DNA from: Gemmatimonadaceae bacterium
GTDB taxonomy: Bacteria; Gemmatimonadota; Gemmatimonadetes; Gemmatimonadales; Gemmatimonadaceae
Direction of reading: 5' to 3'
DNA length: 64,000 nucleotides
NCBI GenBank assembly: GCA_040901985.1
Contig: JBBDYC010000008.1
Span: 112,490 to 176,489, forward strand
Shown: positions 45,001 through 48,000 of the stretch, piece by piece
Layout of the letters: every line of letters begins with the position of its first letter
Position numbering within the stretch: position 1 is the stretch's first letter
Program-made: the position numbers

Positions 45001-48000
45001 GCGGACGGCCAGCAGGGTCCGGTCGAGGCTGCCGAGCGTGTAGTAGAAATCCCGTCCGGGCACGTCGTTGCCGATCCAACGCCCGCCGAGCGACCGCACA
45101 ATCGCCTCGGCCTCGCGTGGGTCGCGGCCGTCGCGCATCGTCACGGTGAGCCGCTGGCACTCGTAGATCCACTTCCGGCGGTCGTGACAATAGCCGAAGC
45201 CGATGCGGACCACCTCGCTGTCGCCCGCGCTCGTGATGATGTCAATCGGGATCACCGTACCGACGGGGAGCCGATAGTCGAGGTCGAGCGGCTGGGCGGC
45301 GACGCCGATCAGTCCGCCGTCGGTGGCATCGCCCCAAAGGTAGATGTGCAGTTCCGGCCGGAGCTCAGGGGCGAGGAGGGGTGCCGTCGGTGCCACATCG
45401 CACGAGACGAGCGCAACGGCCAGCAGGAGGCCTGCGCCGCCACTCCTCACTCGACGATGATCGTGCCCGACATTGCCGCGCCGTGGAGCGTGCAGAGGTA
45501 CGGGTAGCTGCCGACCGTCGGAAAGTCGCGCTGGTAGGTCCCGGACGACTGGTTGACCGAGGCGGGGCCGTCATCGAATGTGACATTGTGCAGCGCGCTG
45601 CCGGCGTTCCACGTCCAAGTCACCGTGGAGCCGCTCGGCACCCTGGAGGTGGACGGGCTGAAGAAGTTGTTGCCGACCTTGATCTCCGTGCTTGTGCCGC
45701 TGCCGCCGGTGATGACGCCGTCACCGCAGGCGGCCAGCGCCGCGACCACCACCATCGCACCGAGTACTCGGCGAATGCGCATTGCGTCCATTGCCACCTC
45801 CGGAGATGGAGTCTGGGCAGACGTTGACGGCGCGCGCAAGGCCGTGTATCGTGAGGAAGATGCGCACCACCACTACCCCCGCGACGTATTCGTACGTCAG
45901 CACCTACGCACCCCGTGACCCGGGGCGTGGAGCTTGGGGTGTGCGCACGTAACGACGCGCAACGACCGATTCCTCCGCGGCCCGTGGACCTCCACGGGCC
46001 GTTTTTTTTCGTCCCTCAGCCGAGAGCACCCCCATGCAGCCCCATCCAGATCACGCCGCGCCGTCCGTCGTCGCCTCCGAGGCGCTCCCCGCGTTCGTCG
46101 AGCAGCGCTACGCGGCGTACACCGACGAGGAGCACGACGTCTGGGGGATCCTGTACGCGCGGCGGATGGCGGCGCTCGAGGAGACCGCCAGCCGGGTCTT
46201 CCTGGATGGCGCCGAGCGAATTGGCCTCGCGCCCAACCGTGTGCCCGAGCTGGCCGAGGTGAACCGGCGGTTGGGGCCGACCACTGGCTGGAACGCCGTC
46301 GGGGTGGGCGGCTTCATCCCAGCCGCCGGATTCTTCCAATGCCTCGCGCAACGCCGCTTTCCGACGACGCTGATCGTGCGGCCGCGCGCGCAGCTCGATT
46401 ACCTCCCCGAGCCGGACATCTTCCACGACGTGTTCGGGCACGTGCCGCTCCACGCCGACCCGGTCTTCGCCGATTTCCTGCAGCGCTTCGGCGCGCTGGC
46501 GGCGACGGCCACCACCGAGGCGGAGACGACGGCGATGGCGCGGCTCTTCTGGTTCACCGTCGAGTTCGGCCTGGTGCGCGAGCGCGGTGCGACGCGGATC
46601 TACGGCAGCGGGTTGATTTCGTCGCACGGCGATGCCGCCAACGCGCTCGGCCCTGCCTGCGACCGGCGCCCGTTCACGCTCGACGCGGTGATCGGCCAGC
46701 CGTTCGAGATTGACCGGCTGCAGGACGTGCTCTTCGTGGTGGAGTCGTTCGACCAGCTCTTTGAGGCGGTGGAGGCGCTCTGGGCGCGGCGCGGCGGCGG
46801 GGGCGCGCGATGAAGTTGCTCCGGCCTCCGGCGCGGACTAGGTTGCGCGGGGCATGACTCCCTCCTCCGACGCCCGCCGCCAGTTGCTCGGCGCGGCGAA
46901 GAAGTTCCTGCTCGACTCGCCGAAGGCGCCGTCCGTGGCGCCGGTCGTCCCGCCGCGCCTTACGCCCGCCGCCCTGGAGAAGATCCCGATGTCCCGCTCC
47001 CGCGACCGCATCCTCGCCAACCTCGAGGAGATGTACACCGAGGCCTTCCAGCGGGCCAAGGAATCGGGCGACGACGCCCAGATGGCGACGCTCGACTTTG
47101 CCTACCGCCGCGAGCAGCTCTATTTCGAGATCCTGCTCGACGTGCGCGATGCCGTCGAGCGGAAGGGCTGAGGACGCACGGTCGCCGGACGCGCCGATGC
47201 TCCGCCTGATCGTCAACGCCCGCATCGCGACCGGTGATCCCAGGCGCCCGTGGGCCGACGCGCTGCTGCTCGACGGGGACCGGGTGATGGCGATCGGGGC
47301 GAGCGCCGAGCTGCGCAAGCGCGCCCGGGCGGCGGACGTCGAGGTCGTGGATGCGCAGGGGGGCGTCGTCGAACCCGACGGCGCCCCCTACGTCACCCGG
47401 TGAGGCGCGATGCTCTGCACGTGGTCAGAACGCGGTGAGCTCCTCGAAGGCCCGCGCGAAGTCCGCCACCTGCGGCAGGATCGCGTCCTCGAGGGACGGG
47501 GCGTAGCCGACGAAGGTGTCGGTGCTCGCCACGCGCTTCACCGGCGCGTCGAGCCAGGCGAAGCAGTCGTCGGCGATCCGCGCCGCGATCTCAGCGCCGT
47601 ACCCCCACGAGATTGAGTCCTCGTACGCCACGAGCGCGCGGCCGGTCTTCCGCACCGACGCATAGACTGCCTCGCGGTCCCACGGCGCGAGCGTGCGAAG
47701 GTCAAGCACCTCGACCGCGATGCCCTTCTCCTCCTCGACCTGGTTGGCGGCGGCGAGCGCGCGCTGCACGGTGGCGCCGTAGGTCACGACCGTTGCATCG
47801 CGCCCCTCCTTCACGACCCGCGCCTTGCCGAACGGAATCATGAAGTTCGGGCCCGGATAGGCGGACTTGTTGTAGGTCTGGCGGTAGAGGTGCTTGTGTT
47901 CGAGGAAAATCACCGGGTCGTCGCAGCGGATTGCCGTCCGCAACAGTCCGTTGGCGTCGAGGGCGTTGCTGGGGCAGACGACACGGAGTCCGGGGCAGTG

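Follow-up and report, generated by a model that had tools for sequence, protein, structure and literature searches.

The phenylalanine hydroxylase gene phhA of a Gemmatimonadaceae bacterium is preceded by a short leader that we read, with a probability of roughly 85%, as a classical ribosome-mediated transcription attenuator keyed to tyrosyl-tRNA. The element lies in a 64,000-nucleotide stretch of genomic DNA, called the window here, along which all positions are counted. Three traits of classical attenuators were found: a short leader ORF rich in codons for the pathway product, an intrinsic terminator between the leader and the first gene, and control codons placed such that a stalled ribosome would, in fold models, free segment 2 of the RNA. 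A genome-wide survey's note had proposed this mechanism, and it is supported by our sequence comparisons and folding calculations, in that the architecture, the in-frame Tyr codons, the fixed geometry and the metabolic logic all fit it.

Results

Architecture of the phhA leader

The 30-codon leader ORF with clustered Tyr codons and the intrinsic terminator just before phhA, both described earlier, were recovered (Table 1). The terminator hairpin has a predicted energy of -24.2 kcal/mol, close to the earlier value of -25.1, with a z score of -5.3 and none of 200 shuffles equally stable, and among 22 homologues 3 of its 11 pairs carry compensatory changes, one pair in 6 of the 22 sequences. The leader ORF had no family match in Pfam or NCBIfam, and an Rfam search over 45600-46200 returned nothing below an E value of 1.6. 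In 13 loci searched at the gathering score, tRNA was the sole Rfam match, with no Trp, His, Phe, Leu or Thr leader and no T-box. The identity of the downstream gene held up as well: judged by the equivalog HMM, its product is phenylalanine 4-monooxygenase (PhhA), with 306 bits against NCBIfam NF008877 (phenylalanine 4-monooxygenase; cut-off 247) and 251 bits against TIGR01267, slightly below the cut-off of 264.75.

Table 1. Parts of the phhA leader region, in positions of the window
Feature	Position	Strand	Remarks
Whole element, leader ORF through phhA	45860..46813	+	follow-up of the genome-wide survey's note
Sigma-70-like promoter, TTGACG-17-TATCGT	45824..45852	+	transcription predicted to start on or beside the A of the ATG
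Leader ORF, 30 codons, apparently leaderless	45860..45952	+	translation MRTTTTPATYSYVSTYAPRDPGRGAWGVRT; Tyr enrichment in 37 homologues
Control codons Tyr10 (TAT), Tyr12 (TAC), Tyr16 (TAC)	45887..45907	+	read from the sequence
Segment 1:2, protector hairpin holding the last Tyr codon and the antiterminator core	45904..45930	+	lowest-energy fold without ribosome
Segment 2:3, antiterminator, 45919-45932 paired with 45973-45987	45919..45987	+	predicted fold, -37.4 kcal/mol
Segment 3:4, intrinsic terminator, 11-pair stem, 4-nt loop, U8	45977..46009	+	hairpin 45977-46002 plus 8 T
phhA, phenylalanine 4-monooxygenase, 259 aa	46034..46813	+	PF00351 E 3e-45; NF008877 above cut-off

A single promoter-like site was found between 45300 and 47500, where 0.1 were expected. 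With 7 nt between the end of the -10 box and the leader ATG, the transcript is expected to start on the first codon or directly beside it; judged from this promoter position, the leader mRNA looks leaderless or nearly so. Among the 77 pairs of a short ORF and a terminator in the genome (39 terminators), the phhA leader is the only one with a promoter at its ATG. Of 58 homologous elements, 52 have a similar promoter motif 5-13 nt ahead of the leader start (43 at 6-9 nt), and 51 have the -10 box 5-10 nt ahead of it; as the search in homologues permitted 4-14 nt and steered the choice of start, the spacing counts as support and not as proof. The promoter had been missed in the genome-wide survey's note.

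Distribution of the element

We found a PhhA match in 30 of 61 related genomes, and promoter, leader and terminator together at 23 of these 30 phhA loci. The earlier claim of a genus-wide leader was thereby confirmed (21 of 21 loci of the genus), with two further loci from other families; one of the two is situated at the edge of a contig, with the promoter region missing. The remaining seven loci have neither terminator nor element.

To follow the element further, we built a covariance model from 22 phhA leaders and ran it on 55 genomes of the genus and 151 genomes of the class. We examined 71 matches, kept 58 and checked 36 of the downstream ORFs; of the 13 left out, one was truncated by the end of its contig and twelve were weak matches without a convincing leader. 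The kept elements stand before phhA (35), DAHP synthase (12), hisG (5), tyrA (2) and a chorismate mutase gene (1), with 3 unassigned. Unpublished genomes underlie one DAHP synthase match (G101) and, in the case of G207, one left-out match and one phhA locus without a leader. A class-wide PhhA search that was independent of the leader found the protein in 20 of the 151 genomes and the element at 6 of the 20 loci. In a tree of 51 PhhA proteins, two groups were well supported: the one containing the PhhA studied here has the leader in 36 of 39 cases, the rows being drawn partly from model matches, and the other in 0 of 12. The phhA genes of this second group sit after hppD, fumarylacetoacetase, TPR, AMP-binding or DUF502 genes. 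A loose pattern scanned across GTDB served as a null only, with no bearing on distribution; among the 80 matches listed, three had a T tail and none had at least two Tyr codons in the matching frame.

Leader codons and evidence of translation

Across 37 phhA and tyrA leaders, most of them from one genus and thus kin rather than independent cases, Tyr accounts for 127 of 1,063 in-frame codons, as opposed to 2 and 7 occurrences in the other two frames; TAC is used 77 times and TAT 50 times. Every one of these leaders holds two to five Tyr codons. With Tyr as frequent as in the six frames of the genome, at least three Tyr among 29 codons would arise with a probability of 0.001; with Tyr at an assumed 2.5%, the probability is 0.035. 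These patterns bear on the possibility that translation is incidental, with a riboswitch, a T-box-like element or an RNA-binding protein driving the terminator and the ORF a by-product. Such a control would suit a structured RNA that is conserved ahead of amino-acid genes and can be folded in mutually exclusive ways, but the Tyr codons are frame-specific while their synonymous forms vary, the control codons change with the pathway, and Rfam, T-box included, gave no match. The leader frame is, moreover, free of stops over the 37 elements, compared with 23 and 6 stops in the other frames, a difference that arises partly by construction. We regard incidental translation as very improbable.

The control regions of the same leaders contain 127 Tyr, 2 Phe and 4 Trp codons. 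Few Phe codons are to be expected if Phe starvation ought not to induce a Phe-consuming enzyme. A leader responding to aromatic shortage or slow translation in general, be it through Tyr, Trp, Phe or ribosome speed, or one acting as a constitutive dampener with little regulation, is very improbable given this bias, the two to five Tyr codons in every leader and the fact that the fixed position is that of the last Tyr. In its favor, a few phhA leaders have Trp beside the Tyr run, the three Tyr codons of the 45860-45952 ORF are non-adjacent with Thr and Ser codons frequent too, and the Corynebacterium glutamicum aroR leader is described, in the accessible part of PMC11802643, as holding a Tyr codon yet giving no Tyr response.

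In 31 of 37 leaders the last Tyr codon starts 16 nt upstream of the antiterminator core, about one ribosome footprint, and in three it starts 13 nt upstream. The stop codon follows 14-16 codons past the last Tyr in 35 of the 37, and exactly 15 in 27. At helix positions past the last Tyr the bases are fixed, with GCG in 30 of 37, CCC or ACC, and ACG (16) or CCG (15), while the N-terminal halves and the lengths of the leaders vary freely.

Such regularity could also be read as the mark of a nascent-peptide arrest similar to TnaC, in which the peptide Y-A-P-R-x-P/T-G-R, from within the exit tunnel, would sense free Tyr or another small molecule, the resulting stall setting the terminator. The residues past the last Tyr do look conserved, the distance from Tyr to stop is nearly constant, and PhhA elsewhere is a catabolic entry enzyme according to the accessible part of PMC1173090. 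The conservation, however, resides at the level of bases, exactly at the helices: the exchange of Thr and Pro between ACG and CCG keeps the CG constant, which argues against an arrest peptide. The freedom of the N-terminal halves and lengths speaks against it as well, as does the use of the identical frame with His or Phe codons ahead of other genes, and in the fold models a ribosome at the stop codon does not favor the antiterminator. All in all, we consider peptide arrest very improbable.

Predicted alternative folds of the leader RNA

The genome-wide survey's note had described an antiterminator of -37.4 kcal/mol that excludes the terminator, as judged from their shared bases and the energies of -37.4 and -25.1. 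We reproduced the energy for the fold 45915-45990, but its z score is only -1.8 and 9 of 200 shuffles were as stable. In the prediction the 2:3 rod occupies the terminator 5' arm; the comparison of energies is misleading, however, as the terminator is in the lowest-energy fold of the full-length RNA in all nine states considered (eight ribosome positions and none). Equilibrium folding of the full-length RNA thus gives no switch, and because the terminator wins there, antitermination would have to be co-transcriptional or kinetic.

The inner helix of the predicted rod closes across the leader stop codon and is predicted in 36 of 37 leaders, a count that has no null model beside it. In 22 homologues the core pairs of the antiterminator were formed in 91.5% of cases, against 26-59% when the core was slid. 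The core of the phhA leaders is nearly invariant, and its covariation (one compensatory pair) was not above that of shuffles. For the 1:2 hairpin, RNAalifold gave a consensus of six pairs in 22 homologues, a single compensatory change being seen in each of two of them. The terminator 5' arm finds its strongest duplex partner 12-15 nt past the last control codon, immediately beyond the edge of a ribosome stalled there, whose footprint is put at ~12 nt in the available text of PMC4833913. Comparing cognate and noncognate combinations of leader and arm, we found no advantage of cognate pairing among 35 phhA elements (permutation 0.70), and better cognate pairing in the DAHP and His sets, whose members diverge more (permutation 0.02 each).

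We modeled the nascent RNA with ribosomes at different positions. With everything upstream masked (n = 38), the predicted mean occupancy of the terminator 5' arm was 0.78 for a ribosome at the last Tyr codon, 0.20 for one standing four codons further along and 0.36 for one at the stop codon; without a ribosome it was 0.51. A footprint-sized mask (n = 37) gave a modest contrast, with 0.77 at the last Tyr, 0.44 later, 0.53 at the stop and 0.50 without a ribosome; in 31 of 37 leaders, placing the ribosome at the last Tyr gave a greater occupancy than placing it at the stop codon. Taken together, the models place arm occupancy at 0.77-0.79 at the last Tyr and at 0.20-0.45 four to five codons on.

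Metabolic setting

In this 99.97%-complete assembly we found prephenate dehydratase, two PF00793 matches and pterin-4a-carbinolamine dehydratase. Neither of the TyrA domains, PDH_N and PDH_C, reached its cut-off, in agreement with the earlier statement that the assembly has no TyrA domain. A weak PDH_N match (E 0.0096) proved to be an NAD domain of the 6-phosphogluconate-dehydrogenase type and not TyrA. As prephenate dehydratase is present and TyrA was not detected, PhhA is, on gene content, probably this genome's route to Tyr; the genome carries hppD, however, so PhhA may serve catabolism too. Among related genomes, PDH_N passed the cut-off in 5 of the 23 whose phhA carries the leader and in 5 of the 7 that have the other phhA type, a comparison in which many genomes are incomplete and family is a confounder.

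A similar frame before other amino-acid genes

The element had also been reported before DAHP synthase and tyrA. It is present there, but before DAHP synthase it is not keyed to Tyr alone: 9 of the 12 leaders ahead of DAHP synthase contain Phe (33 Tyr and 23 Phe codons), against 4 of 37 phhA and tyrA leaders, and the contrast between the phhA and DAHP versions is seen inside the single genomes G002 and G030. Examination of 16 of 18 DAHP loci did not bear out the idea that a DAHP leader with Phe signals an operon lacking tyrA. Mixed Phe/Tyr leaders also precede the order DAHP synthase-chorismate mutase-tyrA (G066, G246 and G260), and the same gene order follows Tyr-only or nearly Tyr-only leaders in G144, G162, G188, G245 and G282. 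A Pfam search of 18 of the 57 downstream ORFs added a tyrS in the G104 operon and nothing else.

The model trained on Tyr leaders also matched leaders with His runs ahead of hisG. Among the best 30 of 79 hisG matches, all 13 loci bearing a terminator have a His-rich leader. A profile built solely from the leader part after the Tyr codons scored 7 of the 13 hisG leaders at 5.6-16.7 bits, with five giving no score and one a tie, and it gave at most 0.5 bits in 74 other terminator regions, all from this one genome. The likeness of the hisG and aromatic leaders may nonetheless stem from convergence of GC-rich stems.

In a held-out draw of 151 genomes of the phylum, the search returned 25 new matches, of which we examined 23. 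Sixteen have a leader whose codons suit the downstream gene: three before phhA (two to six Tyr, no Phe), six before DAHP synthase (Tyr or Tyr and Phe), one before chorismate mutase (Tyr), five before hisG (five to seven His each) and one before a fusion of prephenate dehydratase and DAHP synthase (pheA; four Phe, no Tyr). The other seven were ordinary terminators or noise. One genome, G245, contains three versions (phhA, DAHP synthase and hisG), and G047 and G158 each contain a Tyr and a His version.

Discussion

The control that we propose would run as follows. Transcription would begin at about the leader AUG, and a ribosome would load on the leaderless mRNA. When Tyr-tRNA is scarce, the ribosome would stall on the Tyr codons and mask segment 1, leaving the antiterminator core free 16 nt past the last Tyr codon; if the timing is as we suppose, the core would pair with the terminator 5' arm before the 3' arm exists, allowing read-through into phhA. 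When Tyr is plentiful, the ribosome would travel through the core to the stop codon, its passage breaking the 2:3 rod or 1:2 replacing 2:3, and the 3:4 terminator would form. PhhA would then act as a Tyr-biosynthetic enzyme induced by Tyr shortage.

The layout is that of the enterobacterial trpL, hisL and pheL leaders, described in the accessible part of PMC1183508 as leader-peptide attenuators of the Yanofsky model. A short leader ORF, the 1:2, 2:3 and 3:4 alternatives (predicted for the phhA leader), an intrinsic terminator and codons cognate to the pathway product are shared, whereas the Tyr control codons, an aromatic amino acid hydroxylase as target, the apparently leaderless transcript and the lack of an Rfam match set the phhA leader apart. 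In C. glutamicum, a Phe-Tyr-Phe leader, aroR, stands ahead of aroF and is reported to respond to Phe and not to Tyr (available text of PMC4046766 and PMC11802643). As an aromatic-codon leader that includes Tyr before DAHP synthase, it is like our mixed Phe/Tyr members in its codons; the phhA leaders, with two to five Tyr, have almost no Phe.

Leaderless leader peptides are described for trpL, leuL, ilvL and thrL of Streptomyces lividans in the part of PMC8079986 that was available. There, too, the transcript starts at the start codon, and a hairpin and U-tract follow trpL1 and leuL2, but none of the eight leaders in Table 4 of that paper is keyed to Tyr or stands ahead of phhA. The polycysteine sORFs of mycobacteria, as far as the available text goes, likewise have a leader peptide made from a transcript beginning at the start codon. 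The idea of tRNA-sensing attenuation ahead of aroF has been raised before: the accessible part of PMC2659441 tabulates aroF of Shewanella and Escherichia coli as an "attenuator sensing tyr-tRNA", after a 1980 paper, and that of PMC8632094 has a Phe-codon uORF, uORFC-13-1, ahead of aroF in Acholeplasma. In these portions they are a hypothesis and a Phe uORF, with no run of Tyr codons in a leader and no phhA target.

In Proteobacteria, phhA is controlled by PhhR or Lrp-AsnC, PhhR being a protein activator of a catabolic operon (accessible part of PMC1173090). The target enzyme is the same, PhhA, while the control proposed here would act at the RNA level through shortage of the product. The same portion of that paper lists predicted attenuators ahead of tyrA operons, and the word "leader" does not occur in it; the available part of PMC3082878 held nothing relevant. 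Our literature search, made in paper texts, found no Tyr-keyed leader and no attenuator ahead of phenylalanine hydroxylase, just as an earlier search had found none for phhA or tyrosine. The surveys Vitreschak 2004, Lopatovskaya 2010 and Neshat 2014, or their supplements, may list Tyr-containing leaders of other phyla.

Leader-peptide attenuators are textbook knowledge, and one keyed to Tyr ahead of phhA is apparently new; the nearest tested aromatic case, aroR, ignores Tyr, going by the available part of PMC11802643. We lean slightly toward a wider reading, in which one leaderless attenuator scaffold was duplicated across the phylum and re-keyed by codon swaps (Tyr before phhA and tyrA, Phe and Tyr before DAHP synthase, Phe before pheA and His before hisG), turning one PhhA clade from a catabolic into a product-repressed Tyr-biosynthetic route in lineages that lost TyrA. 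If this is true, the phhA leader would be a sensor of Tyr-tRNA alone, and the family would document, as a natural series, the evolution of attenuator specificity. The leader family forms a testable series, with a constant RNA frame and control codons that follow the pathway, even within single genomes, and the phhA leader could act as a compact Tyr-tRNA biosensor. For the organisms themselves, the element speaks for PhhA being a regulated enzyme of biosynthesis where TyrA is absent, which matters when tyrosine auxotrophy is called in metagenome bins.

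Surroundings of the window's phhA

Two short open reading frames (ORFs) follow phhA, and a small cupredoxin-like protein is encoded divergently from the leader; some 30 nt separate the start of its ORF and the −35 box of the leader promoter. Downstream of phhA, we found no terminator-like site up to position 47500.

Features neighboring phhA and its leader (window coordinates)
Feature	Position	Strand	Remarks
Small cupredoxin-like protein	45447-45791	-	Divergent from leader
Short ORF 3' of phhA	46854-47171	+	No Pfam match
Second short ORF 3' of phhA	47098-47403	+	Weak N-terminal amidohydrolase-like match

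Within the genus, PhhA commonly carries a His-rich N-terminal extension (loci L003, L005, L010, L012, L013 and L191), most of which is missing from the window's protein. In the related genome G026 (L006-type and L023; G026:C75:5664-6418), the phhA match is split into two pieces in different frames, reflecting either a frameshift or an assembly error, while the leader is intact.

Leaders in related genomes

Mixed and Phe-only leaders were found before other aromatic amino acid genes. At L340 (genome G104), a mixed Phe/Tyr leader precedes same-strand genes for DAHP synthase, chorismate mutase, an M48 peptidase, tyrS and tyrA, and this attenuator may also control tyrS, the tyrosyl-tRNA synthetase gene. 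The leader at L321/L348 (G292), containing four Phe and no Tyr codons, stands before a prephenate dehydratase–ACT–DAHP synthase fusion. A further Phe-rich leader (three Phe, one Tyr; L224 in G157) has a promoter and a terminator; no gene was recognised in the DNA downstream, and the element is possibly an orphaned attenuator.

Divergent prephenate-dehydrogenase-like domains were observed inside long open frames of 822 aa (L053, G010) and 500 aa (L054, G033), possibly fusions, with no terminator within 420 nt upstream of either domain. Two weak covariance-model matches upstream of heavy-metal P-type ATPase-like genes (L248 in G033 and L250 in G009), near-identical between both genomes, lacked a Tyr run and were counted as noise.

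At the hisG loci (L256-L285), two or more types of scaffold can be distinguished among the His leaders. One resembles the Tyr scaffold; another (L262, L265, L282 and L284) differs in its terminator stem, and the Tyr-equivalent-to-stop spacing is shorter in three of these four. HisG, the one his gene searched for, gave no match in the window's own genome (assembly 99.97% complete), so histidine auxotrophy is possible.
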